Shown: positions 14,655-62,220 of the stretch, one piece after another
Layout of the letters: each line of letters begins with the position of its first letter
Numbering within the stretch: the stretch's first letter is position 1
Assembly (NCBI GenBank): GCA_963703165.1
Contig: OY969798.1
Span: forward strand, 4,622,585-4,686,584
Source of the DNA: an uncultured Actinomycetota bacterium
GTDB lineage: Bacteria; Actinomycetota; Actinomycetes; Sporichthyales; Sporichthyaceae
Length of the DNA stretch: 64,000 nucleotides
Direction of reading: 5' to 3'
Notes under the pieces: generated by a model
The model's database searches: none
What the model was told of the DNA's origin: nothing
The model's input: only the letters and a program-made list of their open reading frames with translations
Made by a program: the position numbers and the translations under genes

Positions 14655-14676
14655 GGGGCCAGCTCCTCTGGATCGA

Positions 14677-17006: not shown

Positions 17007-17017
17007 GGTTGTCCTTC

Positions 17018-18016: not shown

Positions 18017-18021
18017 CGGAC

Positions 18022-19524: not shown

Positions 19525-19535
19525 CTGTGGGTTCC

Positions 19536-19841
19536 TCAGTCCTTGAACCGGTCGGGTTGGATGTCTGCGTAGATGTCGACCCGGCCGTCGCCCACGACGA
19601 TGCGCCCGTAGTAGCTGGCCATGTTCACCAGGAAGATGCTGGTGTCGATGTCCCGCCCGGCGATGTCGGACAGCTCGGTCATGTCGAAGCTCAGGACGTC
19701 GTCGCACTCGATCTTGTAGAAGCAGTCGCGGAAGTCGATGACCGCGTTGGGCTGACTTTCCGTCACATGCTCGACGGCTGCCTGGGTGTCGGAGGAATTC
19801 ATCAAGGAGATCCCGACGCGGCGCTTGGTGGTGGTGCTCAT
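19536..19841 (-). CDS. etnB: monooxygenase coupling/effector protein (MmoB/DmpM family; AmoB/EtnB-like)
   Basis: The 101-aa protein MSTTTKRRVGISLMNSSDTQAAVEHVTESQPNAVIDFRDCFYKIECDDVLSFDM... Its ATG at 19841 overlaps the beta-subunit stop (ATGA). Confidence 0.7.
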   Translation of the reverse strand: MSTTTKRRVGISLMNSSDTQAAVEHVTESQPNAVIDFRDCFYKIECDDVLSFDMTELSDIAGRDIDTSIFLVNMASYYGRIVVGDGRVDIYADIQPDRFKD

Positions 19842-20875
19842 GCCGACATCCCTGCCTCGTCGAGCGCCTGGCGCTGACGCTCGAGAGAACGGGTCAACGC
19901 TTCTTTCGCGCCCGCCTCGTTGACGCCGGCCGCGGCGAAGGCGGCGAGGAATGCGGTGGCTGCCGCCTCGCAGCGCGGGCCCCAGTCGTCGAGCCAGCCT
20001 CCGATGACCTTGGCGTTGTCGCCGCCGGTGTCCGGGTCCGCACACACCAGGCGAACCAGGGCGGCCACCCCGGTGATGTGCCGGTCGGTGTCCCGGATGG
20101 CTCCGGCGAGCACCGCGGGGGTCGCGCCGTCGCCGGCGTGCGCGGCGCGGTGGCTGAACAACTCGCTCTTGGCCAGACTGCCCAGCAGGGGTTCGAACAC
20201 CAGCGTGGTGATCACCAGGGCCTCGACCCAGTCCTCGCAGGCCACCAGGTGCTCGACGAGTTCTCGGATCGGCACCAGCGCAGGGTCGGACATCCAGGCC
20301 TCGCGCGCACCGGCGTCGGTGAAGGACTCGTCGGACTCGCCGAGATGATCGAGATGGAAGACGATGTCCTGGAGCAGGCGCATCCGGTCCGCGGCCTGGA
20401 ACACCACGGTGAACTGCACGGTGTCCGACATGGCTTGCCGGACGCCGTAGGCCAGGGACAGGAAGAGCCCGTACTCGACGAACGGCCAGGCGGCGTAGAG
20501 CCGACCCAGCACCTCGTCACGCCACGGGCCGGCCGCACTCGTGCCGCCGGGGCGGGTGAGCACGGGCAGGGTCCGTGCGAGCGCCTGTTGGTCCTGATTC
20601 GTGGCGCTCACGAAGGGGCGTTGCCACATGCCCGCCGGGTCGCGGTAGTCCCGCCACATGCTTGTGCGCACCGCGCTGCTGTCGTCGCTCCACGGCGGGG
20701 TGCCGTCGTCGAAGCGCACCGGCCAGTCGATGTGCAGCCACTGCCCGGGATCCGACTGCTGGCCGATCGTGTACGACTCGTACTCACTGGGCTTCCGCCG
20801 CGCCGGGGTGAACCAGGTGAAATTTCGATCGCCGGAGAATTCCTCAGCCGTGTGGCCGGGCACCGTCGCCGTCAT
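19838..20875 (-). CDS. etnA: soluble di-iron alkene monooxygenase beta (hydroxylase small) subunit (AmoA/EtnA-like)
   Basis: The 345-aa SDIMO beta-type protein is first in the operon. The gene order beta, coupling, alpha, reductase is the group-4 alkene monooxygenase arrangement. Confidence 0.75.
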   Translation of the reverse strand: MTATVPGHTAEEFSGDRNFTWFTPARRKPSEYESYTIGQQSDPGQWLHIDWPVRFDDGTPPWSDDSSAVRTSMWRDYRDPAGMWQRPFVSATNQDQQALARTLPVLTRPGGTSAAGPWRDEVLGRLYAAWPFVEYGLFLSLAYGVRQAMSDTVQFTVVFQAADRMRLLQDIVFHLDHLGESDESFTDAGAREAWMSDPALVPIRELVEHLVACEDWVEALVITTLVFEPLLGSLAKSELFSHRAAHAGDGATPAVLAGAIRDTDRHITGVAALVRLVCADPDTGGDNAKVIGGWLDDWGPRCEAAATAFLAAFAAAGVNEAGAKEALTRSLERQRQALDEAGMSA

Positions 20876-24259: not shown

Positions 24260-25039
24260 ATGACCCTCGCACCTGAAGTATTTGACGCGACGCTCTCCGA
24301 TGAGGACCTCTTCAAGGCCCTCCGTCAGGCGGACACGGCGGAACGGGAACGCATCCAGACCCTGCTGGTGGATCGATACAGCGGCCTGGTCCGGGCCATC
24401 GCGGCGCGTTACGCGAACCCGGGCGTCGAGGTGGAGGAGCTCCGCCAGGTCGGCTATGTCGGGCTGGTGCTCGCCATCCAACGCTTCGACGTCGAACGCG
24501 GCATCGACTTCACCGCCTTCGCACGGCCGACCATCACCGGTGAGATCCGGCGCTGGTTCCGGGACAAGCGCCGGTGGGTGCGGCTCCCTCGGCGTGTGCA
24601 GGAGACCAAGGCAGGCCTGACCGTGGCCAACGAGGTGCTCACCCACCAACTCGGCCGGTCCCCAACAGTCTCGGAGCTCGCGGCTCACCTGCACGTCGGC
24701 GAGGAACTCGTGCTCGAGGCAATCACGATCGACGACGCCTTCGTGGCGCTCTCGCTCGATGCGCCGGGGGGCGGGGACGACTCTGACGACTGGACGCTGG
24801 GGGACACCCTCGGAGCCCGCGACGAACGACTGGACCTGATGCTCGACGTCGCTGTCCTCGCGCCGCTGATCGCGGACCTTCCCGAGCGGGAGCGGTCCAT
24901 CCTGCAGATGCGTTTCGGGGACGAACTCACCCAGGCAGAGATCGGCCGCCGGTTGGGGTACTCGCAGATGCACATCTCGCGAATCCTCAACCAGATCTTC
25001 GAGACCCTGCGGGCAGGTCTGGCTGAAGCGGAGTCCTGA
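24260..25039 (+). CDS. group 3 sigma-70 factor (SigF/SigB-like alternative sigma factor)
   Basis: Region 2 (LVDRYSGLVRAIAARY...VGYVGLVLAIQRFDVERGIDFTAFARPTITGEIRRWFRD), region 3, and region 4 HTH (ERERSILQMRFGDELTQAEIGRRLGYSQMHISRIL). Confidence 0.8.
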   Translation: MTLAPEVFDATLSDEDLFKALRQADTAERERIQTLLVDRYSGLVRAIAARYANPGVEVEELRQVGYVGLVLAIQRFDVERGIDFTAFARPTITGEIRRWFRDKRRWVRLPRRVQETKAGLTVANEVLTHQLGRSPTVSELAAHLHVGEELVLEAITIDDAFVALSLDAPGGGDDSDDWTLGDTLGARDERLDLMLDVAVLAPLIADLPERERSILQMRFGDELTQAEIGRRLGYSQMHISRILNQIFETLRAGLAEAES

Positions 25040-26030
25040 GGGAGGAGTGGCCGGCTTCCCAGGAGGTCAGCAGATGAGCGTCGAGCCGGTCGTCCAAGGC
25101 TGTGGCGGCCGCCATGCCGAACAACACGTCCCCCGCCACGTCTGGCTCGGCGCCCATCAGTTCCTCGATCGCCTCGCGCATCACCCGTTCATGCACCGCG
25201 TCCGCGACCGCGTGTTCGGCGTAGAACCGTTCGGCCTCCGGACCGCCTTCGAGCCGGCGGACAACCTCGACCATTCGCTGCGAGCCCAGCGGCGAGGTCA
25301 ATTCGACCACCGCCAACTGGCCCAGCAGCGCACCGCGCAGGGCGCGGTGCAGACCGCACAGGGACATGAAGTTGACGACGGCCAGCATGGGCGCGGGTAC
25401 GACATCGACGTACGCCCCGTACTCGGGAGACAAATCGAATGCCCGCATCAGATCGGCGAACAACCTGCTGTGCATGCGATCCGGGCGCCCACCGCCGTAC
25501 TCGTCGAACTCGACGGCAGCCACCAACGCCTTCGCGGCGCCCTCCAATCGCGGCAGCACCCAGGCCTGCGGATCCGCCTCCTTCAGGTGATACAGGGAGC
25601 GGTGGACCAACACCTCGCGCAGTTGGTCCCGGTCGGGCCGGCGCAGCAGATGCGCTCCCACGCCGGTGGCGGAAGGGGGCCGACGCAGGTCGTCGAACTT
25701 GTCCCGCACGGCAGTGGCGGCGTCGCCACCGTCGGTGTGAACCTCGCCCCGGAGGGCTTGAAGGAAGCGATGCTCCAATTGCTTCCGCAAGGCTAGGACG
25801 CCGAGGTCCCATTCGCGTTCGGCATCGACCGTGACGAAACCTCGGTAGTGCAGCTCGTAGCAGACGTACAACGCGAGCTGAAGGTCCTCGGAGAACGGTG
25901 CGGCGTCACCCAGCCCAGCCGGCACCATGGCGACGTCGTGCCGCAGCGCGCCGATCAGTGTGCTCGATACAGGTCCGCGTGGTTGCGGCAGGGTGGGCGC
26001 CGCCACCGCGATCACAGGTGCCATGGTCAT
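24987..26030 (-). CDS. heme-oxygenase-like di-iron (HDO) redox enzyme family protein
   Basis: The 347-aa protein has paired E/H ligand motifs in helices (YVCYELHYRGF; QLEHRF; VEFDEYGGGRPDRMHSRLF; FYAEHAVADAVHERV). This matches the PF14518-type iron-containing redox enzyme pattern. Confidence 0.55.
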   Translation of the reverse strand: MTMAPVIAVAAPTLPQPRGPVSSTLIGALRHDVAMVPAGLGDAAPFSEDLQLALYVCYELHYRGFVTVDAEREWDLGVLALRKQLEHRFLQALRGEVHTDGGDAATAVRDKFDDLRRPPSATGVGAHLLRRPDRDQLREVLVHRSLYHLKEADPQAWVLPRLEGAAKALVAAVEFDEYGGGRPDRMHSRLFADLMRAFDLSPEYGAYVDVVPAPMLAVVNFMSLCGLHRALRGALLGQLAVVELTSPLGSQRMVEVVRRLEGGPEAERFYAEHAVADAVHERVMREAIEELMGAEPDVAGDVLFGMAAATALDDRLDAHLLTSWEAGHSSLRTPLQPDLPAGSRRSG

Positions 26031-43834: not shown

Positions 43835-47458
<3,624 letters not shown>

Positions 47459-47469
47459 GTGGCGTCCTG

Positions 47470-47625
47470 TCTCGGGGTCCGCGCCCCGGATCGGCGGATC
47501 GGCGACCGGGAGTTCCTGGCTTCCGGGCTGGGCCCGGTCACAGTCGCGGGACGGCACCGGCCTCGAACCGGTTTCCTCCGCTGGTCGTCGATGAACTGCG
47601 GCAACTCTGACACACCGGCCAGTCG
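47470..47625 (-). promoter_or_regulatory. candidate cobalamin (B12) riboswitch in the cobN 5' leader
   Basis: Minus-strand leader: GGAGGAAACCGGTTCGAGGCCGGTGCCGTCCCGCGACTGTGACCGGGCCCAGCCCGGAAGCCAGGAACTCCCGG. The core GGAA.CCGGT..GA..CCGG..C.GTCCCGC.ACTGT and a B12-box-like GCCAGGAACTCCC follow the cobalamin riboswitch consensus. Confidence 0.5.
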
Positions 47626-47699
47626 GGCCCCGCGTCTACGCTGGGGCTGCGGCGCCTTGCGACCGCGGCGAGCAGGAGAACGGGTCAGGAGCGCGACGG

Positions 47700-48272
47700 A
47701 TGTCGTTGTCGGTGGTGAGTGACACGCTCACGCGGGAGCAGCTCGCGCGGGGGGCGTCGGTTCGCATACCGATGACGTGGGAAGAGTGGCAGGCCCTCGG
47801 CGAGACCAAGCACTTCGAATGGTCCGAGGGAGTCCTGTACGTGAACCCGCCGAATCGTTGGCATGTACTCGTGGCCAAGCGCCTCACTCGCCTGCTGGAC
47901 GACGTCGCCCCACCGGGGACGGTCGCCTACCCGGAGTGGGGACTGCGCACGACCGGTGGCGACTTCGAACCGGACATCATGCTTGCGGCCGAGGACCAAG
48001 CCGACGTCGAGCATTACACGACGGTGATACCTCTGCTCGTGGTGGAGGTCGGGTCGCCCACCACTCGCGATCTGGACAAACAATTGAAGTTCTCGGCCTA
48101 CGCGCAAGCAGGCGTCTCCTGGTACTGGATTGTCGATCGCGACCTGCTCACCGTGTACGAGAACGTCGACGGCACGTTCGTGGAGCGCCAGCGGGTCGAG
48201 GCCGGTTCGCCGCAGAACACGGTGGGGCCCGTCGGTCTGCTGCTCGACCCGAGCACCCTCACCGACCGCTGA
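47700..48272 (+). CDS. Uma2-family (DUF820) PD-(D/E)XK endonuclease
   Basis: Typical Uma2 layout (EWQALGETKHFEWSEGVLYVNPP...PDIMLAAED...LLVVEVGSPTTRDLD...KFSAYAQAGVSWYWIVD). Confidence 0.65.
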   Translation: MSLSVVSDTLTREQLARGASVRIPMTWEEWQALGETKHFEWSEGVLYVNPPNRWHVLVAKRLTRLLDDVAPPGTVAYPEWGLRTTGGDFEPDIMLAAEDQADVEHYTTVIPLLVVEVGSPTTRDLDKQLKFSAYAQAGVSWYWIVDRDLLTVYENVDGTFVERQRVEAGSPQNTVGPVGLLLDPSTLTDR

Positions 48273-48319: not shown

Positions 48320-49213
48320 GTGACCGCCCCCTCCACCCGCCGCTCCGGGCCCGACCTCTGTCCTGGGGTCCGGTCCGTGTGGTCGGCGGCCGACGGGGGA
48401 CTGGCGCGGGTCCGGATCCCCGGCGGGCGACTCTCCGCCGATCAGCTGCGCCTGCTTGCCGACGCTGCTGACGACCTCGGCAACGGGCTCCTGGAGCTCA
48501 CCGTCCGCGCGAACGTGCAGGTCCGCGGGTTGAGTGCCGGGCGTGAGCAGGATCTCGCTGCCAGGTTGCGGGTCGGCGGACTGCTGCCCAGCGACACCCA
48601 CGACCGCGTCCGCAACATTCTCGGCTCGCCGCTGGCCGGCGGCGGACGGTCGCGGACCTGATCTCTACCCTCGACGAGGAACTCTGCGACCGGCCCGCGC
48701 TCGAGGCGCTGCCCGGCCGATTCCTCTTCGCCCTCGATGACGGCTCAGCCGACGTCGCCGCGCTCGGGGCGGACGTCGGGGCCGATCGTCGTCGGGGGGT
48801 CTGTTCGCGCTGCTGCTCGGTGGCGCGCCGTGCGGCCGGTGGGTCGCTGCACGAGGACGTCGTCGCGACGCTGCTGGCGGCCGCCGAGGCGTTCCTCGAC
48901 GAACGCGGTGCGCAGTGCTCGCCGGCCTGGCGTCTCGCCGGAATTGACTGACGGACCGTCACGGGTGCTCGCAGGCGTCGCCCAGCGTGTGTCGCTGGCT
49001 GACGCAGGAACGGCGGTTCCCGACCTGTCGGAGCCGAACGCGCCGAGCGGTCCCGAGGTCGTCGAGGTGCCGGACGGCAGGCTGACCAGTGCGCGGGCCC
49101 GGGAGATCGCGGCCATGGGCGACGACCTTCGGGTGACGCCGTGGCGCAGCATCGTCGTGCCGGCGCCTGTTGACCGCAGGGAACACGCATCGCAAGGTGG
49201 GGGAGTGAAGTGA
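48320..49213 (+). pseudogene. cobG: precorrin-3B synthase CobG, multiply frame-switched and/or truncated
   Basis: N-terminal segment GGLARVRIPGGRLSADQLRLLADAADDLGNGLLELTVRANVQVRGL (48320..48661). The middle segment TVADLISTLDEELCDRPALEALPGRFLFALDDGSADVAALGADVG is readable only in another frame. The C-terminal segment VPDGRLTSARAREIAAMGDDLRVTPWRSIVVPA is back in the first frame. Total length is only about 298 codons. Its stop overlaps the cobH start (GTGA). Confidence 0.45.
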
Positions 49214-49849
49214 GTACCGAGTTGGACTACGTGCGCGACGGGACGGAGATCTACCGCCGCTCGTTCGCGACCATCCGGGCCGAGGCGAACCTCGACCGGC
49301 TGCCGCCGGACGTCGCGCAGGTCGCCGTGCGCATGATTCATGCGTGCGGCATGGTCGACCTCGTCGATGATCTGAGGTGGAGTCAGAACGTGGTGGGTGC
49401 CGCGCGGGCGGCCCTCCGCAACGGTGCTCCGATCCTGTGTGACGCGACCATGGTGGCGTCCGGTATCACCCGCAAGCGGTTGCCCGCCGACAACGAGATC
49501 CTCTGTCTGCTCAGCGACCCGCAGGTTCCCGAGCTGGCCGCGGCGATGGGCAACACGCGTTCGGCTGCCGCCGTCGATCTGTGGGGCGACCGCCTGGGCG
49601 GTGCGGTGGTGGCCTTCGGCAATGCGCCCACTGCCCTGTTCCGACTGCTGGAGCTGCTCGCCGACGGCGCCCCGCGTCCGGCCGCGGTGCTCGGGCTGCC
49701 CGTCGGCTTCATCGGGGCCGCGGAGTCCAAGGACGCGTTGGCGGCAAGTCGACCAGGAGTACCTGCTGGTTCGTGGTCGCCGCGGGGGATCGGCCATGGC
49801 CGTCGCCGCCATCAATGCCATCGCCCACGAGCAGGAGCTGCCGGTATGA
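49210..49849 (+). CDS. cobH: precorrin-8X methylmutase CobH (1-nt frame switch near 49745)
   Basis: The first about 178 aa ([55 protein letters not shown]...) are in the 49210 frame. The conserved C-terminus [28 protein letters not shown] is in the 49397..49849 frame, and its TGA overlaps the cobIJ ATG. Confidence 0.65.
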
Positions 49850-51366
49850 CAGGCACCTTGTACGGCGTAGGGCTGGGGCCGGGCGACCCCGAGCTGGTGA
49901 CGGTCAAGGCGGCCCGGTTGCTCGCGAGCGCGGAGGTCATCGCGTTCCACTCCGCCCGACACGGCAACAGCGTGGCGCGCGGGATCGCGGAGGAGTACCT
50001 CAACGGCAACCAGGTCGAGGAACCCCTTCGGTATCCGGTGACAGTCGAGACCACCGACCACCCCGGCGGGTACCGCGGCGCGCTCGAGGAGTTCTACGAC
50101 GACGCGGCCGCACGCCTCGCCGTCCATCTGGACGACGGCCGCGACGTGGTCGTGCTCTGCGAGGGCGACCCGCTCTTCTACGGCTCCTATATGCATCTGC
50201 ACAAGCGCCTGGCCGACCGGTACCCAGCGGTCGTCGTCCCCGGTGTGACCTCGGTGGCCGGCGCCGCGGCGGAACTGGGCCGCCCGCTGGTCGAGGGCGA
50301 GGAGGTGCTGACGATCCTGCCCGGAACCCTGCCGCCGACCGTGCTCGCCGAACGCCTGGCCGCAGCCGACTCGGTGGCCATCATGAAGCTGGGTCGCACC
50401 TTCACCGGGGTGCGCGACGCCCTCGCGGCATCCGGGCGCCTCGACGAGGCCTGGTACATCGAGCGAGCGACCACCGATCGGCAGCGCATCGCACCGTTGA
50501 GCGAGGTCGAGCCGGCGAGCGTGCCCTACTTCTCCCTTGCGCTGCTCCCGAGCAAGCTCTCGCCGGGACTGCGTGCGGCCGCCGCCCCCGATGCGGTCGA
50601 GCAGATCGCGACCGGGCGGGGCGAGGTCGTCGTGGTCGGCCTCGGGCCGGCCGGGCGGGACTGGCTGACCCCGCAGGCACAAGCCGCGCTGTCCGCGGCG
50701 GAGGATCTCGTCGGCTACGGCCCGTACCTGGACCGCGTTCCGCCCAACCCGCGCCAACGCCGCCACGCCTCGGACAACCAGGTGGAGGACGTCCGCGCCG
50801 AGTTCGCCCTCGATCTGGCCCGGCGTGGGCGCCGCGTCGCCGTTGTCTCCTCCGGGGACCCCGGCATTTTCGCGATGGCCGCCGCGGTGCTCGAGGCCGC
50901 CGAGGGCCAGGAGTACAAGGACGTCCCGATCCGGGTGCTGCCCGGACTGACCGCCGCGGCCGCCGTGGCCAGCCGGGTCGGCGCCCCGCTCGGCGGTGAC
51001 TTCTGCGTGCTCTCGCTGTCCGACCGACTCAAGCCGTGGGAGCTCATCGAGAAGCGCTTGTCCGGTGTGGCCGCCGCCGATCTGGTCATCGCCATCTACA
51101 ACCCCGCCTCGAAGTCCCGGACCTGGCAGTTGGCCCGGGCCCAGGAACTGCTGCTGGAGCACCGGGGACCGGACACCCCGGTCGTCATCGGGCGCGACGT
51201 CGGTGGCCCGGCCGAGCGGATCGTGGTGCGTACCCTCGCCGACCTCGACCCCACCGAGGTCGACATGCGGTGCCTGCTGATCGTCGGCTCCTCGACCACC
51301 CGGCTGCTCACCCGCGGCGACGGATCGGTCGCCGTTCTGACGCCCCGTCGCTGCACCCCCGCCTGA
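49846..51366 (+). CDS. cobIJ: fused precorrin-2 C20-methyltransferase / precorrin-3B C17-methyltransferase CobIJ
   Basis: Two tetrapyrrole methylase domains ([26 protein letters not shown]...; [24 protein letters not shown]...). Length is 506 aa. ATGA overlap with cobH. Confidence 0.85.
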
Positions 51367-51616
51367 GGGATATTTGCGCCACCGCAAGCACCGAGGAGTC
51401 ACACCAGGTGACCGGTATCGTGCACATCGTGACCCCTGCGACGAGGCGGCTGAATGACGTGCAGTCACGCACGTCCAAATGGTGCGAATGGGCCGTTGAC
51501 GTGCGGAAACGTACCTGTGGCAATTGGCAGACAGGTTCGTTCGGCAGCGCGCGGGACGATCTTCGGTCACCCTGTTCGGTGGGGACGCACCTGGTAAGAG
51601 GGGAGCTAGCAGTCGC

Positions 51617-52618
51617 ATGAGCGCGCCGATTTTGGTCACCGGCGGTACGGGGATGCTCGGGCGTCTGCTGGTCCGCGAACTTCTGGAGCGAGGCCGCGAG
51701 GTTCGCGTGCTGAGCCGCAAGCCGCAGCCCGGTGTGCCCGCCGGAACGCCCGCCGCTCCCGGTGAGGCGCACTGGTTCGTCGGCGACCTGCACTCCGGTC
51801 TCGGCCTGCCCGCAGCGCTCGACGGCGTCACCTCGGTGGCGCATTGCGCGGTCGGCAGTCGCGGCGACGCCCAGATGGGCGCGCAACTGATGATCGCCGC
51901 GTCCCGCGCCGGCAACCCGCACATCGTGTTCCACTCCGCCACCGGCGCCGAGGCGATCCGCAGCAACTACTACCGGGACAAGCGCGCGATGGAGCGCCTG
52001 CTCGAGGACGGCTCGCTGCCGTGGACCGTCCTGCGCACCACCCACATGCACGAGGTGATCGAGGCAGGCCTGGCCCACGCCGCCCGGCTCCCGCTCATGC
52101 GCGTGGCCTCCGACGAGAAGTTCCAGCCGGTCGCCGGCGACGAGGTTGCCGTGCGCCTGGCCGACTGGTGCACCGGCATCATCCCCGGCCACCACGTGCC
52201 GTCGCTGGCCGGCCCGCAGGCGCTCACCGCGCTCGAGCTGGCCGAGATCTGGCTCAAGGAGAACCGCAAGACCCGCAAGCTCGTGGCGATGAAGCTGCCC
52301 GGCACCGAGCACGAGGGCTGGCGCATCGGCGCGCACCTGCTCGGCCCGGAGCGCATGGTCGGCGACCAGACCTTCGTCGAGTTCCTGGTCGCGAACCGTG
52401 AAGGTCAGCTGGCCGACGAGGAGTCGCGCAAGGTCTCCAAGGCCGCCGCGAAAGAGGCCGAGAAGGCCGCCGAGCGCGAGGCCAAGGAGGCAGTGAAGGC
52501 CGAGAAGGCCGCCCGCGAGGAGCAGAAGGCCGCCGAGAAGGCAGCCCGCGCGGCCGAGAAGGACAAGCGGTCGAGCACCGAGCGGTCCGGCAACGACCCG
52601 GCGCCGCACGCGGGTTGA
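51617..52618 (+). CDS. NmrA-like NAD(P)-binding protein with Lys/Glu/Ala-rich C-terminal tail
   Basis: ILVTGGTGMLGRLLVRELLERG Rossmann motif. C-terminal low-complexity KAAAKEAEKAAEREAKEAVKAEKAAREEQKAAEKAARAAEKDK. An AAGAGGGGAG ribosome-binding site precedes the ATG at 51617. Confidence 0.6.
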   Translation: MSAPILVTGGTGMLGRLLVRELLERGREVRVLSRKPQPGVPAGTPAAPGEAHWFVGDLHSGLGLPAALDGVTSVAHCAVGSRGDAQMGAQLMIAASRAGNPHIVFHSATGAEAIRSNYYRDKRAMERLLEDGSLPWTVLRTTHMHEVIEAGLAHAARLPLMRVASDEKFQPVAGDEVAVRLADWCTGIIPGHHVPSLAGPQALTALELAEIWLKENRKTRKLVAMKLPGTEHEGWRIGAHLLGPERMVGDQTFVEFLVANREGQLADEESRKVSKAAAKEAEKAAEREAKEAVKAEKAAREEQKAAEKAARAAEKDKRSSTERSGNDPAPHAG

Positions 52619-52620
52619 GC

Positions 52621-53352
52621 TCAGCTCTCCAGCCACTGCAGCGCGGTGGGCACGTCGGCGACGACAGTGACGTCCGCGTCGGGCAGCGGCGGTCTGTCGA
52701 CCATGACCACCGGAATGCCGCGCTCGCGGGCGACGGTCAGCTTGGCCGCGGTCAGGTCGCCACCGCTGTCCTTGGTCACCAGCACCCCGATGCCGTGTCG
52801 CTCGAGCAGCTCGCGTTCGGAGTCGAGGTCGTAGGGGCCGCGGGCGAGCAGGACCTCATGGTCGGCGGGCAGGGGCGGCTCGGGCGGGTCGACGGCGCGG
52901 ATCACGAAGCGGTGCGGCAGGTCGGCGAAGGTTGCCAGGCCCCCGCGGCCGGTGGTCAGCAGCACCGGGCCGGGGTGCTCCCGCAGCGCGGCGGCGGCGG
53001 CGGGCATGTCCGGGACACGGTGCCACCGGTCCTCGGGGCCCTCGCGCCAGCCGGGCCGGCGCAGTACCAGCAGGGGGATGCCGGTGAGTTCGCAGGCCGT
53101 GACCGCCGACGCGCTGATTCGGGCGGCGAAGGGATGGGTTGCGTCGACGACGGCGCGCACGCACTCCGTGCGAAGCCAGGCCGCCAGGCCCTCCGGTCCA
53201 CCGAACCCGCCGATGCGGACCTCGCCGAGGGGGAGTAACGGGTCGGAAACCCTACCGGCGAGGGAACTGACGACCCGTCCGGTGTTGCGATCGGCCAGCA
53301 CCCGGGCCAGCGCGCGAGCCTCGCCCGTACCGCCGAGGATCAGCACCGTCAC
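52621..53352 (-). CDS. cobK: precorrin-6A reductase CobK
   Basis: MTVLILGGTGEARALARVL... CobK/CbiJ family. Its stop lies 2 nt before the NmrA-like gene end (convergent). Its ATG overlaps the cobM stop. Confidence 0.8.
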   Translation of the reverse strand: MTVLILGGTGEARALARVLADRNTGRVVSSLAGRVSDPLLPLGEVRIGGFGGPEGLAAWLRTECVRAVVDATHPFAARISASAVTACELTGIPLLVLRRPGWREGPEDRWHRVPDMPAAAAALREHPGPVLLTTGRGGLATFADLPHRFVIRAVDPPEPPLPADHEVLLARGPYDLDSERELLERHGIGVLVTKDSGGDLTAAKLTVARERGIPVVMVDRPPLPDADVTVVADVPTALQWLES

Positions 53353-54095
53353 AGGGTGCGGTCCCGCTCCGCGCTGTACAGATGGCTGTCGCAGAACTGA
53401 CCGGCGCCCAGCACGGCACCCACGAGGATGACGGCGGTGCGTCGGACGTCGGCGGCGCGTACCCGCTCGGCGATGTCGGCCAGTGTCCCGCGCAGCACCA
53501 GTTCGTCCGGGCGGCTGGCCCGCGCGACCACAGCGACCGGTGTCGCGGGGGCGTAGTGGGGGAGCAGGTCCGCGACGACGGTCTCGATGTCCTGCACCGC
53601 CAGATGCAGCGCCAGGGTGACTCCGCTGCGGGCGAGGGTCGCGAGGTCCTCGCCCGGAGGCATCGGCGTGGAGCGCTTCGAGATGCGCGTGAGCAGCACC
53701 GACTGGCCGATGCCGGGCACGGTCAACTCACGGGCCAGGGTCGCGGCCGCGGCGGCGTAGGCCGGCACGCCCGGTGTCACGTCGTAGGGGACACCGGCGG
53801 CGTCGAGGCGGCGCATCTGCTCGGCCATCGCGGAGTACAGCGACGGATCTCCGGAGTGCAGCCGGGCGACGTCGTGGCCGGCGACGTGGGCCGCGACCAA
53901 CTCGGCGACGATCGCGTCCAGGTCCAGATGCGCCGTGTCGACGAGCCGGGCCCCCGGCGGGCACCAGGTGAGCATCTCCGCCGGGACCAAGGCCCCCGCG
54001 TAGAGGCACACCGGCGACGTCGCGATCAGGTCGCGGCCGCGCAGGGTGATCAGATCCGCGGCTCCAGGGCCGGCGCCGATGAAGTGGACCGTCAC
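53349..54095 (-). CDS. cobM: precorrin-4 C11-methyltransferase CobM
   Basis: The GTG at 54095 overlaps the cobL stop (GTGA). VTVHFIGAGPGAADLITLRGRDLI... tetrapyrrole methylase. Confidence 0.85.
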   Translation of the reverse strand: MTVHFIGAGPGAADLITLRGRDLIATSPVCLYAGALVPAEMLTWCPPGARLVDTAHLDLDAIVAELVAAHVAGHDVARLHSGDPSLYSAMAEQMRRLDAAGVPYDVTPGVPAYAAAAATLARELTVPGIGQSVLLTRISKRSTPMPPGEDLATLARSGVTLALHLAVQDIETVVADLLPHYAPATPVAVVARASRPDELVLRGTLADIAERVRAADVRRTAVILVGAVLGAGQFCDSHLYSAERDRTL

Positions 54096-55309
54096 TTGGT
54101 CACGGTCCACTGCGTGACCGGGTGCGCGGCCTGCCATCCGGAGAACCGGCCCAGGGCCACCGCGCGGGAGATCTCGAGGCGCACCAGATCGCCGCCGAGC
54201 CGTCCCGCGTGCTCCACGACCACGGCCTCGGTCTGCAACGTGACGGCGTTGACGACCATCCGCCCACCGGGGGCCAGCGCCGCCCAACACCGGTCGAGCA
54301 GGAGCGGGTCGCTCCCACCCCCACCGACGAACACCGCGTCCGGGGCGGGCAGGCCGGCCAGTGCCACAGGGGCCTCCCCGAGCACGACCTGCAGGTCGGG
54401 CACACCGAGGCGGGACGCGTTCCCGGTGATACGGGCCGCTCGCTCCGCGTGCCGCTCCACGGCGATCGCCTTCGCCCCGACCGCGGCGCGCATCCATTCG
54501 ATGCCGACGCTGCCCGCCCCGCCGCCGATGTCCCAGAGCAGCGCTCCGGGCAGCGGCACCAGGCGGGCCAGGGTCAACGTCCGGATCTCGCGCTTGGTGA
54601 GCTGACCGTCGTGCTCGAAGGCCTCGTCCGGAAGACCGGTCCGGCCCAGGACGGCGCTCGGGTCGTCGGCCAGGACCTCGACGGCCACCACGTTGAGCGG
54701 GTCGAAGCCGGCCTCGGGCGCCTTCAGATCACCCGCGGTGCCCGCGGTGATCCGCTCGCCCGGTCCGTCCAGTTGCTCCAGCACCCACAACCGGCTCGCA
54801 CCGTAGCCGGCGTCGGCGAGTACGGCGCGCACCGCGTCCGGGGTGGTTGCCCCAGAGCTCAGCACCAGCACCCGCGCGCCCGGCGACAGATCGGCTCGCA
54901 GCTTGTCCAGCGGACGCCCGACCGCCGAACGGACCGTCAGATCCTCTGTGGACCAGCGCAGGCGCGCGCAGGCCAGTGACACGGATCCGGGGTGCGGCAC
55001 CACCTCGACGGCGTCCGCACCGAGGAGCCGGACCAGTGTCGAGCCGATGCCGTAGAACATCGGGTCCCCGCTGGCCAGGACGCACACGCGTAGACCCGCC
55101 AGCGTCTCCAGGACCGCCGGCAGGTTCTCCGCGGGGCGCGACGGCAGCGGTACCCGCAGCCCCGGCAGTGGCGCAGGCAGGTACGCCAGTTGCCGCTCGC
55201 TGCCGATCACCGCGTCGGCCGAGGCCACGGCGGTGCGGGCCGGGCCGGTCAGCCCGTCCCACCCGTCGGCCCCGATACCGACGACGACGATCGCCGCGAC
55301 CTCGGTCAT
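54092..55309 (-). CDS. cobL: precorrin-6Y C5,15-methyltransferase (decarboxylating) CobL
   Basis: MTEVAAIVVVGIGADGWDGL... CbiE-like domain plus a CbiT-like domain (LWDIGGGAGSVGIE). Its ATG overlaps the upstream PPOX gene stop (ATGA). Confidence 0.85.
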   Translation of the reverse strand: MTEVAAIVVVGIGADGWDGLTGPARTAVASADAVIGSERQLAYLPAPLPGLRVPLPSRPAENLPAVLETLAGLRVCVLASGDPMFYGIGSTLVRLLGADAVEVVPHPGSVSLACARLRWSTEDLTVRSAVGRPLDKLRADLSPGARVLVLSSGATTPDAVRAVLADAGYGASRLWVLEQLDGPGERITAGTAGDLKAPEAGFDPLNVVAVEVLADDPSAVLGRTGLPDEAFEHDGQLTKREIRTLTLARLVPLPGALLWDIGGGAGSVGIEWMRAAVGAKAIAVERHAERAARITGNASRLGVPDLQVVLGEAPVALAGLPAPDAVFVGGGGSDPLLLDRCWAALAPGGRMVVNAVTLQTEAVVVEHAGRLGGDLVRLEISRAVALGRFSGWQAAHPVTQWTVTK

Positions 55310-55740
55310 GCGCGTCCGAGCATCCGCTCGAGCTTGAGAAGGATGACGATGCGCTCCGGGTTCGGCCCCGGGACGCGGTATCGGAGGCCGTAGCGGCGCT
55401 CGGCCTCCGCGACATCCCCGGGATCGGCGGAGATCGTCGCCCGACCCTCCGCCGTGGTCCACCGGCCGCCGTCGATCTGACACACCGCGACCGGCGCCCC
55501 GGCAGGGCCGGCCGCCATGATCTGACGGACCTTCAGCGACCCTCGACCGGCGATGATCCGCACCAGCCCCGCCTCCGGGTCGAGCGTCGCCCCGACGGCC
55601 ACGACGTGCGGGCGCCCGTCGGCGTGCAGGGTCGTCAACGAGCACAGGTGCCGTTCGGACCAGAACGCGATCAAGGCCGGATCGTCGAACGCGATGCCGG
55701 GGGAGCGCCGCCGTACCGGGCTGATCACGGGATCGCTCAC
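55306..55740 (-). CDS. PPOX-class (pyridoxamine-phosphate-oxidase-fold) putative F420-dependent enzyme
   Basis: Split-barrel PNPOx-fold signature (GIAFDDPALIAFWSERHLCSLTTLHADGRPHVVAVGATLDP...RIIAGRGSLKVRQI...). The GTG at 55740 overlaps the cobF stop (GTGA). An alternative ATG lies at 55782. Confidence 0.6.
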   Translation of the reverse strand: MSDPVISPVRRRSPGIAFDDPALIAFWSERHLCSLTTLHADGRPHVVAVGATLDPEAGLVRIIAGRGSLKVRQIMAAGPAGAPVAVCQIDGGRWTTAEGRATISADPGDVAEAERRYGLRYRVPGPNPERIVILLKLERMLGRA

Positions 55741-56498
55741 GTGGTGGTCCGTCGTCGCAGGAGGTAGCTGTCCATGATCCATCCCTTGCGGTCGCGGGCC
55801 GCGGCCCGGAGTTCGCCAATCTCCGTCTTGCATTCCTGCAGGTCCCCGGCGACGAGCAGCTCGTCCGGCATGCCGAGGTAGGCCCCCCAGTAGATGTCCA
55901 GGTCGGTGTCGAGCAGTTTCTCGAACGCCCCGGACCCGTCGAGCATCACGAGGATGTCGTCCAGTTCGGCGGGCATGCCGCCGAGCAGTCGCCGACCTGT
56001 GGTCACGTGCACAGGCTCGCCGAGGCCGGTGAAGGTCACCTGATGGGCCGCGGCGAGCACCTGCAGGCTGGTGATGCCCGGGACGACGTGCGTTGCGAAT
56101 TCCGTGACCCCACGCGCCCGCACCCGGTCCAGCACCCGCAGGGTGCTGTCGTAAAGCGCGGGGTCGCCCCAGACGAGGATGCCGCCGGACTCCTCAGGAC
56201 CGAGCGACGCCGCGATCGCCTCCTCGAAGGCGATGGCCCGCAGGTCGTACCAGTCGTTGACCGCGCCGGGGTAGTCGGCGGCAGCGCGGTCGCGCGACTG
56301 CTCGGGGATCGTTACCAACCGGTAGGGCCGGGTGATGTGCCGGCGACAGATCTCCTCGCGCACCGCGACGAGTTCCGCGGTAGGCGCTCCCTTGTCGACG
56401 ACGAACACCACGTCGAGGTCGCCCAGCACCCGGACCGCCTGCAGGGTCAGTTGCTCGGGGTCGCCGGAGCCGATGCCGATCACATGAACGTTACGCAC
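55737..56498 (-). CDS. cobF: precorrin-6A synthase (deacetylating) CobF
   Basis: VRNVHVIGIGSGDPEQLTLQAVRVL... tetrapyrrole methylase fold. The start is assigned to the GTG at 56498 by comparison with CobF N-termini. The longer upstream ORF extension is Arg-rich nonsense. Confidence 0.7.
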   Translation of the reverse strand: MRNVHVIGIGSGDPEQLTLQAVRVLGDLDVVFVVDKGAPTAELVAVREEICRRHITRPYRLVTIPEQSRDRAAADYPGAVNDWYDLRAIAFEEAIAASLGPEESGGILVWGDPALYDSTLRVLDRVRARGVTEFATHVVPGITSLQVLAAAHQVTFTGLGEPVHVTTGRRLLGGMPAELDDILVMLDGSGAFEKLLDTDLDIYWGAYLGMPDELLVAGDLQECKTEIGELRAAARDRKGWIMDSYLLRRRTTT

Positions 56499-56711
56499 CG
56501 GTACACCTTGCCGGCCACGCTCCGAGCAGGTACTCGGCGCATCTGTCGTGTCGCCGCCGTCACGCTCCAAAGAGCCATGTGTTGTCGCCGCCGTCACTGC
56601 GCCGACCCGGGCACGCCAATAGGGTCGAGGGAGGCATCGATCGCGCTTGGCACGCCCCGCCCGTGCTCAGCGGTCGCCGGTTTCGTCCCCGGCCGGAAGA
56701 AAGAGGCACAG

Positions 56712-59700
56712 GTGTTCGAGCGCATTGCCATCGTCAACCGCGGCGAGGCGGCCGTCCGTCTGATCCGCGCCGTGCGGGAGCTGAACGAGGAACGCGGGCT
56801 GAACATCCGCACCGTTGCGATGCACACCGAGGGTGAGCGTTCGGCAATGTTCGTGCGCCAGGCCGACGAGGCCGTCCTGCTGCAGCCCAGCAAGACGGCC
56901 TCGGTCCCTTATCTGGACTACGCCGAACTGGAGCGGGCGTTGGTCGCCTGCGGTGCCGACGCGGTCTGGGTCGGCTGGGGCTTCGTGTCCGAGCACCCCG
57001 CCTTCGTCGAGGTCTGCGACCGGCTGGGCATCAACTTCATCGGTCCCAAGGCCGACGCCATGCGTCTGCTCGGGGACAAGATCGAGGCCAAGCTCGTCGC
57101 CGAGCGCGTCGGGGTCCCGGTCGCCGCGTGGAGCGGCGCGGGCAGCGTCGAGTCATACGCCGACGCGCAACGGCACGCCTCGGCCATCGGCTACCCCCTG
57201 ATCATCAAGGCCAAGGCCGGCGGCGGCGGGCGCGGCATCCGCAAGGTGATGGAGCCCTCCGAACTGCAGGCCGCCTTCGAGGGCGTCAAGACCGACGCCG
57301 CCCGCTACTTCGGCGACGACGGCGTGTTCCTCGAGGCCCTGGTGACCGGCGGGCGCCACGTCGAGGTGCAGATCATCGCCGACAAGCACGGCAACGTCTG
57401 GGCACCCGGCGTGCGTGACTGCTCCATCCAACGACGCAACCAGAAGATCATCGAGGAGTCCGCCTCCCCGGTGCTCACCCCCGAGCAGTCACTCGAGTTG
57501 CGCCGGGTCTCGATCGAACTCATCAAGGAGGTCGGCTACCACGGTGCGGGCACCGTCGAGTACCTCTACGACCCGGTCCGTAAGACCTTCGCGTTCCTCG
57601 AGGTCAACACCCGGCTGCAGGTCGAACACCCGATCACCGAGGCGGCCACCGGCATCGACCTGGTGAAGCTGCAGATCCTTCTCGCCGCGGACGAGGCGCT
57701 GGCGGGGGAGTGCCCGCCGGAACTGCGCCACGCCATCGAGATCCGGCTCAACGCGGAGGACCCCGACAACGGCTTCTCGCCGGCGCCCGGCAAGGTCGTC
57801 TTCCTGGACTTCCCGCAGGGTCCCGGTATCCGCGTCGACTCCGGCATCGCGCAGGGCGACGTGATTCCGCAGGAGTTCGACTCGATGGTCGCCAAGATCA
57901 TCGCCATCGGGGTCGACCGGAACGAGGCGCTGGCCCGACTGCGCCGCGCGCTGCGCGACACCACAGTGGTCATCGAGGGCGGCACCACCAACAAGTCCTT
58001 CGTGCTCGACCTGCTCAGCCGCGCCGAGGTGCTCTCCGGCTCGGCGGACACCGCGTGGTTGGACCGCACGGGCCTGGACAGCAAGACCCTGCCCGCCCAC
58101 GCCGATGTCGCGCTCTACGCCGTGGCGATCGACGTCTACGCCCACGAGGAAGCGGTGGAACGCGAGGCGTTCCTCGCCTCGGCACGTGGCGGTCGCCCGC
58201 AGGCCAATCACGCCATCGGTCGCGACGTCGAGGTTCGGTACCGCGGTCAGAACTACAAACTGACGGTCAATCAGCTCGCGCCGAACCGGTACCGGATCAC
58301 TGTGGCGGGCACGAGCGTGGAGGCCCGGGTGGACCGGCAGGGCCGGTTCCTGTTCCGGCTCTCCGTCGCCGGCAAGGTCCACCGGATCGTGCTCGCACGT
58401 GGGGCGGCCGATCACCTCGTCGAGGTCGACGGCATCAGCCACCGCGTCGCCCGCGACGAGGGCGGCGTCATCCGTGCCTCGGCACCCGCGGTCATCGTCT
58501 CGCTGCCGGTCAAGGTCGGGGACACCGTCGAGGCCGGGGCCACCGTCGCCGTGCTCGAGGCGATGAAGATGGAGACCCCGATCCTCGCGCCGGTCTCCGG
58601 GCGGGTGCGCGACGTGTTCGCCGTCGCCAACTCGCAGGTCCCCGCGGGCACCCCGCTGCATGCGCATCGACCCGGACTCCACCGACACCGGCCCGTCGGA
58701 CGCCCCCGTGGTGGCCTTCGAGACGGACGGCGCCACCGAGGTCGACCCGCGTACCCATGCCACCGAACTGCTGGGTTCGCTGCGCGCCCTGGTCACCGGC
58801 TACGACATCACCGCCAAGGACGGCCGGGCGCTGGTCTCCGACTACTCCGCGGTGCGCAAGTCGCTACCTGCCGACGACGCGGAACTGCTCGCCGCCGAGC
58901 TGAGTCTGCTCACCGTGTTCGCCGACGTCGCCGAGATGTCGCGTAACAAGCCGGTGGCCGAGGAGGAGCACTCCGACACGCGTGTGCACAGCCCGCGCGA
59001 GCATCTGCACTCCTACCTGCAGTCCCTCGACCTGGAGCGCGAAGGCCTGCCGGACTCCTTCCGCACGCGCCTGACCCGGGTGTTGGCCCACTACGGGGTG
59101 TCCGACCTGGAGCCCACGGGGCGCCTCAAGGACGCTGTCTTCCGCGTGTTCCTGGCTCTGGAGCGCACCGAGTCGCAGGTACCGGTCGTCAACGCGATGC
59201 TCGAGCGCTGGATGGACGTCGCAGATGTCACCGCGGCGCACGACGCCCTCGCCGAGGTTCTCGAGCGGCTCGTGGTGGCCACTCAGATTCGCTACCCGGT
59301 GATCGCCGACGTGGCCCGGGCCGTGCGCTACCGCTACTTCGACAAGCCGCTGCACATGGCGGCCCGCCAGTCCGAGATCTCCCGCGTCCGGGAGCAGCTC
59401 GGGTACCTCGTGCAGAACCCGGCCGCGCCCGACCGGGCCGACCGCGTCGAAGCGATGGTCGTCTCCCCGGAGCCGGTCATCGGGCTGATGAGCGAGTGGA
59501 TCGGCACCGGTACGGCCGACCTCGGTCCGCTGCTGGAGGTCCTGACCCGCCGGTACTACCGCTCCCGCGAGCTGGAGAACGTGCGGTTGTTCGAGCACGG
59601 TCTGCGCCAGATGGTCACCGCCGACTTCGAGCTCAACGCGAATCGGCTCTATCTGATCAACACCGTCGGCGACTTCAGCGAACTTGCGGCGTTGGCCGCA

Positions 59701-62220
59701 TCGGTCGCCGAGGTGGCGGAGGGCACCGCGGCCTTCGAGCCGCGCACGCTGGTCGTGGACATCTACCTGTCCTGGGCCGACGCCCCCGCCGACCAGGGCC
59801 AGGTCGCCGCGGCGTTGCGGGACGCTCTCGCGGAGCTACCGCTGCCGGACACGCTGCGTCGCGTCACCATCGGTGTCGCGGGCGAACTTGCCGCACGGGC
59901 GCACTATCTGACGTTCCGTCCGATCGAGGGCAGCCTCCAGGAGGACCGCCTCATCCGCGGCCTGCACCCGCTGGTGGCACAGCGCCTGGACCTGGCTCGG
60001 TTGAAGAATTTCGAACTGACCCGCCTGCCTGCCGACGAGGGTGTCTACCTGTTCAGGGCCGTCGGCCGGGAGAACCCGGAGGACGAACGACTCATCGCCC
60101 TCGGCGAGATCCGCGACGTCCACCCGTTGCGCGACGCGGCCGGCCGAGTGCTGGCCGTGCCCACGGTGGAGCGCGTCCTCGGTGGTTGCGTGGAGGCGAT
60201 CCGGGCGGAGCATTCGCAGCTGCCGGCAAAGCGACGTGCGGAGTCCAACCGCATCGTGCTCTCGGTCGCCCCGACCGCGAAGGTGCCGCTGGCGGAGATG
60301 CACCACGTGGTGCGCAACCTGGTTCCCATGACCGCCGGTGCGGGCCTCGAGGAGGTCATGGTCGTCGGTCGGCTGCAGGAGGCGGACAACGTCGAGGCCC
60401 ACGAGGTCGCGGTGCTGATCTCCTACCGCCACGGTGCAGGCGTGCAGATCTCGGTCACCGAACGGCCGAAGGAGCCGCTCCCGCCGCTGGACGAGTACGC
60501 GATGAAGGTGCGCTCCTCGGCCGCCCGCGGCACCATCTATCCCTACGAACTCGTCAAGATGCTGGTCGGCGAGAACGGCAACTTCGTCGAGCACGATCTC
60601 GACGACGACGGGACGCTCGTCCCGGTGCGTCGTGCCCCCGGCAAGAACAAGGCGGGCATCGTCGCGGGCCTGGTCACGACCCCGACCGAGCGCTACCCGG
60701 AGGGCATGACCCGGGTGATCCTGCTCGGCGACCCGACGAAGTCTCTGGGCTCGGTGGCCGAGGCCGAGTGCCACCGCGTCTGCGCCGCGTTGGACCTGGC
60801 CGAGTCCAAGGGCTACCCCGTCGAGTGGTTCGCCCTGTCCTCCGGTGCCCGCATCTCCATGGAATCCGGCACGGAGAACATGGACTGGGTCTCCCGTGCA
60901 TTGCGCCGGATCATCGAGTTCACCCAGGCCGGCGGCGAGGTCAACGTCGTCGTCGCGGGCATCAACGTCGGTGCCCAGCCGTACTGGAACGCCGAAGCCA
61001 CGATGCTCATGCACACCAAGGGCATCCTGGTGATGACGCCGGACTCGGCGATGGTGCTGACCGGCAAGCACTCACTGGACTACGCGGGCGGTGTTTCCGC
61101 CGAGGACAACTTCGGCATCGGTGGCTACGACCGCGTCATGGGCCCGAACGGTCAGGCGCAGTACTGGGCGCCGAACATGACCGCCGCCATCCACATCCTC
61201 TTCACCCACTACGAGCACGCCTACCGGGCGCCGGGGGAGCGCTTCCCCCGTCAGGCCTCGACGACCGACCCGCGCGAGCGGGATGTGCGCGACTACCCGC
61301 ATGTGCACCCAGGCAGCGACTTCACCCGGGTCGGGGACATTTTCTCGGAGGAGAAGAACGGCGAACGCAAGAAGCCCTTCGACATCCGCACCGTGATGCG
61401 TGCGGTCTCCGACGCCGATCACGCGGTGATGGAGCGGTGGGCCGGCATGGCCGACGCGGACACCTCGGTGGTGTTCGACGCGCACCTCGGCGGTATCCCG
61501 GTGCAGCTGATCGGCATCGAGTCCAAGCCGATCCCGCGTCGGGGCTACCTACCCAAGGACGGACCGGACATCTGGACCGGCGGCACGTTGTTCCCGATGT
61601 CGTCGAAGAAGACCGCGCGCGCCATCAACGCCGCCAGCGGTGTGCGTCCGCTGGTGGTGCTGGCGAACCTCTCCGGCTTCGACGGCTCACCGGAGTCGCT
61701 GCGCAACACCCAGCTCGAACTCGGCGCCGAGATCGGCCGGGCCATCGTGAACTTCGACGGCCCGATCGTCTTCACCGTCATCTCCCGCTACCACGGTGGT
61801 GCCTTCGTGGTGTTCTCCGGCGCGTTGAACGAGAACATGGAGGTCATCGCCGTCGAAGGCTCCTACGCCTCGGTGCTCGGTGGTGCGCCGGCGGCGGCCA
61901 TCGTGTTCGTCGGTGAGGTGCGCAAGCGCACCAACTCGGACCCCCGGATCAAGGAGCTCGAGGCGGCGCTGGCCGCTGCCGAGGGTTCGGCGGCGGCGGC
62001 CTTGCGGGTGGAGCTCGCCGACCTGCGCAACACCGTGCGGATCGAGAAGCTCGGGGAGGTCGCGGACGAGTTCGAGAGCATCCATGACATCCGTCGGGCG
62101 CAGAAGGTCGGCTCGGTACACACGATCATCGCGGCGTCGGACCTGCGTCCGTACCTGATCAGCGCAGTCGAGCGGGGCATGGCCCGCACGCTCGGAACCG
62201 CTCCTGACCAAGGCATCTGA
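56712..62220 (+). CDS. eukaryote-like single-chain acyl-CoA carboxylase (biotin carboxylase - BCCP - central domain - carboxyltransferase), frame switch near 58655
   Basis: The GTG at 56712 is preceded by an AAGAGG ribosome-binding site. BC domain (FERIAIVNRGEAAVRLIRAV...). BCCP domain (ATVAVLEAMKMETPILAPVSGRV). After a 1-nt frame change at about 58655, a long central domain. Then an ACC-type CT domain (GIVAGLVTTPTERYPEGMTRVILLGDPT...MLMHTKGILVMTPDSAMVLTGK). Combined length is about 1835 aa. Confidence 0.65.

Follow-up and report, generated by a model that had tools for sequence, protein, structure and literature searches.

The stretch of DNA analysed here (the window) comprises 64,000 nt of contig OY969798.1 from an uncultured bacterium of the Sporichthyaceae (Actinomycetota). 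Its GC content is 69.7%, and all coordinates below are positions within it. Our subject is a small gene for a PPOX-fold protein, hereafter the PPOX gene, which lies on the reverse strand between cobF and cobL, two genes of cobalamin (vitamin B12) biosynthesis. The features of this locus are given one per line, with the evidence that identified each in brackets.

55737-56498, reverse strand: cobF, precorrin-6A synthase; the longest open reading frame (ORF) extends to 56597 (TIGR02434, 314 bits)
55737-55740, reverse strand: GTGA overlap of the cobF stop and the PPOX start (direct sequence reading)
55306-55740, reverse strand: the PPOX gene, FDOR-B4 / PPOX fold, 144 amino acids, Rv2074-type homologue (PF01243, TIGR03618, Rv2074 match, AlphaFold2, Foldseek)
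55306-55309, reverse strand: ATGA overlap of the PPOX stop and the cobL start (direct sequence reading)
54092-55309, reverse strand: cobL, precorrin-6B C5,15-methyltransferase/decarboxylase, a CbiE and CbiT fusion of 405 amino acids (TIGR02467, 156 bits; TIGR02469, 107 bits)
53349-54095, reverse strand: cobM, precorrin-4 C11-methyltransferase, 248 amino acids (TIGR01465, 290 bits)
52621-53352, reverse strand: cobK, precorrin-6A reductase, 243 amino acids (PF02571, 245 bits; NF005968, 328 bits)

The GTG start codon of the PPOX gene (55740-55738) overlaps the TGA of cobF (55739-55737), and its own TGA (55308-55306) overlaps the ATG of cobL (55309-55307). The two junctions further downstream are GTGA overlaps as well (cobL/cobM at 54092-54095 and cobM/cobK at 53349-53352), so that each of the four junctions in cobF-PPOX-cobL-cobM-cobK is an overlap of 4 nt. 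The PPOX gene is the second cistron of this five-gene operon and an integral part of it. Because every stop codon in the operon overlaps the next start by 4 nt, the PPOX protein is made together with the enzymes that lead from precorrin-4 to precorrin-8. The same two overlaps around the PPOX gene were present in independent gene calls for a 72%-identical relative (P0013). A previous interpretation based on the letters of this DNA (the sequence-only reading) had named both overlaps and the four cob neighbours, all of which are confirmed, the former by the sequence and the latter by Pfam and NCBIfam models. It had also described the PPOX gene as translationally welded into the operon. The overlaps are real, and the special status implied by that wording is not: such overlaps are the normal style of this operon, ordinary for high-GC operons, and no peculiarity of the PPOX gene. 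A scan of positions 52000-57500 returned no promoter or terminator, a null result that is uninformative in DNA of 70% GC.

The PPOX ORF is an intact, real coding gene. Its GC content at codon positions 1, 2 and 3 (0.73, 0.56 and 0.88) matches that of the flanking cob genes, and its protein aligns with homologues over the full length. Conservation is lacking in the first ~19 residues, which received values of 63-80 in the predicted local distance difference test (pLDDT) of AlphaFold2. Translation could alternatively begin at an in-frame GTG at 55728 (codon 5), in which case the overlap with cobF would give way to a gap of ~8 nt. The start of cobL is backed by homologue alignments that begin at residues 1-7. 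For cobF, the TIGR02434 match begins at amino acid 35 of the long ORF and the CobF of a relative aligns with its residue 1 at 56498, suggesting that the true start is probably the GTG at 56498 (253 amino acids) and not 56597.

The sole Pfam match of the PPOX protein was PF01243 (PNPOx_N, 42.7 bits). Among PDB sequences, the best match was Rv2074 of Mycobacterium tuberculosis (2ASF and 5JAB, E = 1.1e-31), with an identity of 51% overall that spans the whole core. A diverse set of 16 homologues shared 38 invariant positions, 34 of which are identical in Rv2074. Structure gave the same answer: the top Foldseek match of the AlphaFold2 model (pLDDT 93.2) was 5JAB, the complex of Rv2074 with coenzyme F420 (template modelling score 0.79-0.89, root-mean-square deviation 1.5 Å, 50% identity). 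All of the top four matches were Rv2074 chains, followed by other F420-binding FDOR-B proteins (Rv1155, Rv2991, MSMEG_3380 and MSMEG_6526) at 19-24% identity. The PPOX protein has the PNPOx-like split beta-barrel fold of ~130-145 residues according to PF01243, AlphaFold2 and Foldseek; it is nearer to Rv2074 than to any other FDOR subgroup in both sequence and structure; and it keeps the family-invariant residues, the presumed cofactor or substrate site. Source databases label its homologues 'F420H(2)-dependent biliverdin reductase'. We are highly confident that the window protein is a reductase of the FDOR-B4 (Rv2074) type. The earlier assignment to the F420 class of the PPOX fold is in this way borne out by the Pfam, NCBIfam, PDB and Foldseek matches.

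The NCBIfam model for the F420 PPOX class, TIGR03618, scored 66.2 bits against the window protein and did not reach its curated cutoff of 79.05. The same model gave 78.2 bits for P0013, 80.6 for the Actinosynnema copy, 84.4 for one from Streptomyces and 95.7 for a mycobacterial orthologue. Judged by these sequence scores, the window protein is a somewhat divergent member of its family. A score under the F420-class cutoff, and a fold that lies within the flavin mononucleotide (FMN)-binding split-barrel superfamily, could also fit a user of FMN or flavin adenine dinucleotide that fills another flavin step, be it as a CobR-like cob(II)yrinic acid a,c-diamide reductase, as the electron supply of CobG or as a true pyridoxamine-phosphate oxidase. 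We consider this very improbable, as the significant family matches came exclusively from the F420 PPOX class, an F420 complex is the nearest structure (50% identity), and the protein has no Flavin_Reduct, PdxH or PNPOx C-terminal match. Two candidate identities were rejected on these grounds: CobR for lack of a match to the Flavin_Reduct model, and PdxH because 144 amino acids are too short for a protein of ~200 and neither the PdxH model nor the PNPOx C-terminal domain matched. An identity as CobK/CbiJ was rejected as well, since the PPOX protein has no PF02571 match and the true CobK is encoded at 52621-53352.

Comparison with named systems places the window protein more precisely. Rv1155 (FDOR-B3, PDB 4QVB), the second-best PDB sequence match, shares its superfamily and fold, binds F420 and is the seed of TIGR03618, yet is only ~20% identical to it (E = 1.7e-3, root-mean-square deviation 3.6 Å). 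CobR, a split-barrel reductase of the flavin type, is devoted to the synthesis of cobalamin. It differs in belonging to the Flavin_Reduct Pfam family and in acting late in the pathway, away from CobL; its reaction is a one-electron reduction of cobalt, to which F420, an obligate hydride carrier, is ill suited. CobK/CbiJ is alike in acting in the same pathway segment, from the same operon, through hydride delivery to a tetrapyrrole macrocycle. It differs in its unrelated fold (PF02571) and its dependence on NADPH, and it is present here, so it has not been replaced by the PPOX protein.

Rv2074 itself is an FDOR-B4 protein with a published activity as F420H2-dependent biliverdin reductase (PMC8498797). 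Since this activity has been reported in vitro (5JAB; PMC8498797), 'unexplained', a word of the sequence-only reading, does not fit the fold, nor is the family uncharacterised. F420H2-driven reduction of biliverdin has been demonstrated only for Rv2074 and MSMEG_3880, and a review states that the physiological relevance of this reaction in the Rv2074 family 'remains to be established' (PMC8498797). The window gene and Rv2074 have in common that they encode the same split-barrel fold and lie less than 1 kb from cobL in cob clusters of the aerobic type (PMC8477398). They differ in arrangement: the mycobacterial gene is divergent, with a short-chain dehydrogenase/reductase (SDR) gene of the Rv2073c type, overlapping cobL, in between, whereas the window gene is internal to the operon, between cobF and cobL, and overlaps both neighbours. 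The unconserved N-terminal extension of ~19 residues is a further difference. [quoted passage not shown]

We determined how far the association with cob genes extends in a sample of 80 genome and 80 metagenome loci encoding homologues of at least 47% identity, which were searched with the Cob proteins of the window. Within the sequence available, cob genes stood beside the PPOX gene in seven genome and nine metagenome loci (16/160). A same-strand PPOX gene directly upstream of cobL was found in Actinosynnema, Saccharothrix, Streptosporangium, Sinosporangium, one Micromonospora and a metagenome-assembled genome (L011), the last of which shares the cobF-PPOX-cobL-cobM-cobK layout. PPOX followed directly by cobL on the same strand was also seen in four metagenome loci (L099, L101, L108 and L115). 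Other arrangements included cobF divergent from PPOX with cobL downstream (L121), cobL divergent from PPOX, within SDR-cobL-cobM-cobK as in Mycobacterium (L140), and cobK, or cobK with another tetrapyrrole methylase, near PPOX (L152 and L155). The PPOX gene lay beside cobN in two loci (L061 and L154), convergent with it in the Lipingzhangella genome and in the order cobN then PPOX in L154. In Actinomadura, PPOX, cobL and cobM form an isolated mini-operon.

Two relatives of the Sporichthyaceae type (P0013 and P0028), found by exact-protein look-up, keep the whole layout of the window: a divergent carboxylase, cobF-PPOX-cobL-cobM-cobK, a convergent NmrA-like gene, cobIJ, cobH and cobG, and cobN. 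In Mycobacterium, cobG-cobH-cobIJ is followed on the opposite strand by cobK-cobM-cobL-SDR and, across a 36-bp gap, by the divergent PPOX gene, an arrangement that agrees with the H37Rv coordinates (PMC8477398). The sequence-only reading had placed Rv2074 next to cobL. It does lie near cobL (PMC8477398), although not adjacent to it, because Rv2073c intervenes and Rv2074 is divergent.

The coupling to cobL is often tight, as the stop of PPOX and the start of cobL share 4, 8 or 11 nt in 7 of the 11 loci where PPOX precedes cobL. The linkage holds across cluster types, namely cobF-type clusters, cbiD-type clusters and the PPOX-cobL-cobM mini-operon. When the 16 linked loci are tallied together with the window, P0013, P0028, P0108 and Mycobacterium, the PPOX gene occurs as an accessory gene of cob clusters in at least five orders and at least five arrangements (upstream of cobL; between cobF and cobL; beside cobN; divergent from cobL; in the cobL-cobM mini-operon), and this membership is not universal. 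The PPOX gene directly precedes cobL in ~8% of loci with adequate flanking sequence; by a rough, uncomputed estimate, a gene would do so by chance in about one in several thousand cases. Every linked cluster with enough sequence keeps cobK. In a neighbour-joining tree, which is indicative only because the sequences are short and branches carry no support values, linked copies fell in at least four separate places, and one cluster of Streptosporangiales, Pseudonocardiales and one Micromonospora was mostly cob-linked. The link to cob genes is real but partial. Synteny outside this genome, proposed earlier as a check, was found in Sporichthyaceae-like relatives, Pseudonocardiales, Streptosporangiales, one Micromonospora and Mycobacterium. 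Of the conserved link that had been proposed, the recurrence stands and the generality does not, with linkage in ~10% of the 160 homologues.

Several observations weigh against a role specific to cobalamin synthesis. Of the loci flanked by at least 2 kb on each side, only ~10% are cob-linked. Streptomycetales and most Micromonosporales lack cob adjacency: ~55 copies from Streptomyces, Kitasatospora and Yinghuangia are divergent from clpB with no cob gene within 8 kb, Micromonosporaceae copies follow a DUF2252 gene with overlapping stop and start codons, and other copies adjoin genes for chorismate mutase, TetR, P450/aldo-keto reductase or LacI. Not one alignment column sets the 18 cob-linked copies apart from the 93 that are securely unlinked, so one biochemical function must fit all of these contexts. 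An exhaustive profile search over 1.84 billion protein representatives yielded 800 members at E ≤ 1e-3, which makes this a small family, and no fusion of a Cob protein with PPOX was found among the best 150 of these representatives; the ten longest of the 150 carried lactonase, SnoaL, NUDIX or fragmentary aconitase or Hsp70 parts and no Cob domain. Rfam searches found no cobalamin riboswitch upstream of PPOX in the linked loci and none before the cobF operon in the window, where the only one precedes cobN. The TIGR03618 score of the window protein is below the F420-class cutoff, and no gene for F420 biosynthesis (fbi/cof) was among the window genes scanned. Finally, cobK lies in the same operon, which leaves no reduction step vacant. 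DUF2252, a domain of unknown function, is a second recurrent partner of FDOR-B4 genes in its own right (L022, 6434-8393; L171, 3556-5423; L173, 3574-5417).

A first alternative is that the PPOX protein is a housekeeping F420H2-dependent biliverdin reductase or antioxidant, acting in haem breakdown or stress, whose position among cob genes is a historical accident. Biliverdin reduction is the sole demonstrated activity of the family (5JAB; PMC8498797). The S. atratus homologue lies in a heat-shock and oxidative-stress cluster described as 'very different' from the M. tuberculosis context, and the Streptomyces copies sit in a clpB/dnaJ stress cluster (PMC10060970). That most sampled homologues are unlinked, that no residues set linked copies apart, and that both Cob fusions and a B12 riboswitch upstream of the operon are lacking all agree with this explanation. 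However, it does not account for cob adjacency in at least five orders and at least five arrangements, and the frequent stop/start overlap with cobL is unexpected under hitch-hiking. No canonical haem oxygenase gene adjoins any cob-linked copy. Mycobacterial haem degradation by MhuD is not known to yield biliverdin, and therefore the natural substrate of the mycobacterial F-BVR is also doubtful. On balance we regard a purely housekeeping function as rather unlikely, while taking it seriously. As a separate observation, the window has a single gene of the Haem_oxygenas_2 / iron-containing redox enzyme family, at 24987-26030 on the reverse strand and 30 kb away from the PPOX gene; its product is not a canonical haem oxygenase.

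The tight coupling to cobL also suggests a second alternative, in which the protein is a tetrapyrrole-binding carrier, non-catalytic or incidentally catalytic, that hands a labile precorrin (6A, 6B or 8) to CobL. Accessory binding proteins have been proposed in the aerobic pathway. A position right before cobL, with translational coupling in many lineages, would favour equal stoichiometry of the two proteins, and the haem- or tetrapyrrole-binding split-barrels HutZ and HupZ appear among the Foldseek matches (ranks 34-49). These haem-binding relatives are only 15-17% identical, though, while 34 of the 38 invariant residues are shared with an enzyme that was crystallised with F420, and the sequence carries no sign that the cofactor site has been lost. 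We therefore think a carrier function improbable.

The explanation we favour, with some hesitation and at somewhat short of even confidence, is that the PPOX gene encodes an auxiliary F420H2-dependent reductase of a putative tetrapyrrole substrate, co-expressed with the enzymes of the segment from precorrin-5 to precorrin-8. The occurrence in at least five orders, the varied arrangements and the tight coupling to cobL suggest that, in several lineages, the enzyme encounters a tetrapyrrole of the corrin pathway. A physiological role related to corrins is possible on this evidence, and we hold it a little more tentatively. We know of no unassigned redox step between precorrin-4 and precorrin-8 in the aerobic pathway. 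Together with the constant presence of cobK and the lack of any sequence difference between linked and unlinked copies, this points to an auxiliary role with a general substrate range, and not to a missing core step; an auxiliary role is most likely. Replacement of CobK by the PPOX protein was rejected as a candidate explanation, since cobK is present both in the window and in all linked clusters of sufficient sequence length. For the same reason, precorrin-6A reduction, which the sequence-only reading proposed to test, is no vacant step here.

By analogy with its characterised homologue, the PPOX protein would act as a homodimer that binds reduced coenzyme F420. The hydride donor would be C5 of the deazaflavin, and the acceptor an electrophilic carbon, methine or C=C, in the tetrapyrrole held by the protein; in the Rv2074 reaction, the acceptor is C10 of biliverdin. 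Gene context suggests that, here and in the other cob-linked lineages, this substrate may be a corrin-pathway tetrapyrrole around the CobF, CobK and CobL steps. One candidate role is an F420H2-driven conversion of precorrin-6A to precorrin-6B, which would feed CobL; another is the re-reduction or detoxification of oxidised precorrin by-products.

A bolder version of the favoured explanation holds that the native substrates of FDOR-B4 ('F-BVR') proteins are corrin-pathway macrocycles and not biliverdin, making them F420H2-dependent precorrin reductases that either provide a second, deazaflavin-driven route from precorrin-6A to precorrin-6B, with direct supply of CobL, or repair precorrins oxidised by air by reducing them again. 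This we find doubtful. If true, it would be the first link of coenzyme F420 to vitamin B12 biosynthesis in aerobic actinobacteria and would explain the position of Rv2074 beside cobL in M. tuberculosis. It would also connect the redox metabolism of F420 with the B12 supply of mycobacteria and soil actinomycetes, and several hundred genes would have to be re-annotated. If not, the window gene is an unremarkable F-BVR homologue with a chance position in a cob operon. Our literature search, which did not extend to the primary papers on Rv2074 (Ahmed 2016; Biswal 2006), found no paper that ties F420, FDOR-B4 or Rv2074 to cobalamin synthesis. The recurrent, coupled placement of FDOR-B4 genes before cobL provides a concrete hypothesis on the physiological role of the family. 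To our knowledge, the aerobic B12 pathway of actinobacteria has received hardly any biochemical study. The conserved cob association is a genuine, testable lead of moderate strength, and the gene itself adds a slightly divergent member to a known enzyme family.

The remainder of the cob cluster lies downstream of cobK and contains the following features.

51524-52618, forward strand: gene for an NmrA-like NAD(P)-binding protein, convergent with cobK (PF13460/PF05368)
49210-51366, forward strand: cobH (49219-49837) and cobIJ (49840-51366) in one ORF of 718 amino acids (PF02570, two PF00590 matches, tblastn)
48320-49213, forward strand: remnant of cobG (precorrin-3B synthase) with two frameshifts (tblastn with mycobacterial and Sporichthyaceae CobG)
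47490-47626, reverse strand: cobalamin riboswitch upstream of cobN (RF00174, 37.7 bits, gathering threshold 31.5)
43835-47557, reverse strand: cobN, cobaltochelatase subunit, longest ORF (PF02514, 1289 bits, from amino acid 134)

The true start of cobN is downstream of this riboswitch. Between the riboswitch and cobG lies a gene for a Uma2-family endonuclease (47700-48272, forward strand), which was not seen there in the clusters of relatives. The cobG remnant consists of segments at 48353-48640 (frame 2), 48604-48948 (frame 1) and 49067-49159 (frame 2), and is either a pseudogene or an artefact of assembly indels. The 3' end of cobH holds a frameshift (near 49750) that creates the apparent fusion of CobH, CobI and CobJ; residues 184-209 of a relative's CobH are found there in another frame. 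On the other side of the operon, a multidomain acyl-CoA carboxylase gene (56712-62220, forward strand) is divergent from cobF, as in relatives. It encodes biotin carboxylase, biotin carboxyl carrier protein, ACC_central and carboxyltransferase domains. A frameshift near 58640 breaks the gene into a pair of overlapping ORFs, whereas relatives have a single protein of 1831 amino acids. Together, cobG, cobH and the carboxylase gene contain four frameshifts within 14 kb.

A second accessory oxidoreductase accompanies actinobacterial cob clusters (51524-52618 in the window; 7216-7965 in L166), and its identity varies by lineage. In the window and its relatives, it is the NmrA-like gene after cobIJ, which is kept at the same position in the cob clusters of P0013 and P0028. 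Mycobacterium has an adh_short SDR of the Rv2073c type with a stop overlapping cobL, and Sinosporangium a 6-phosphogluconate dehydrogenase-like NAD-binding gene after cobL. In cobN-type actinobacterial clusters without cobF, CbiD, normally an 'anaerobic' C1 methyltransferase, is encoded between cobM and cobK (L001, 10245-11312; L043, 10477-11679; L057, 10719-12023). Elsewhere in the window, a group on the reverse strand at 13551-20875 encodes the alpha (18022-19707) and beta (19838-20875) subunits of a soluble di-iron monooxygenase, a MetE-like Meth_synt_2 protein (13551-14696) and a pyridine-nucleotide disulphide oxidoreductase of 589 amino acids (15408-17177). We take this group to resemble the clusters for alkene or epoxide assimilation of the coenzyme-M type.

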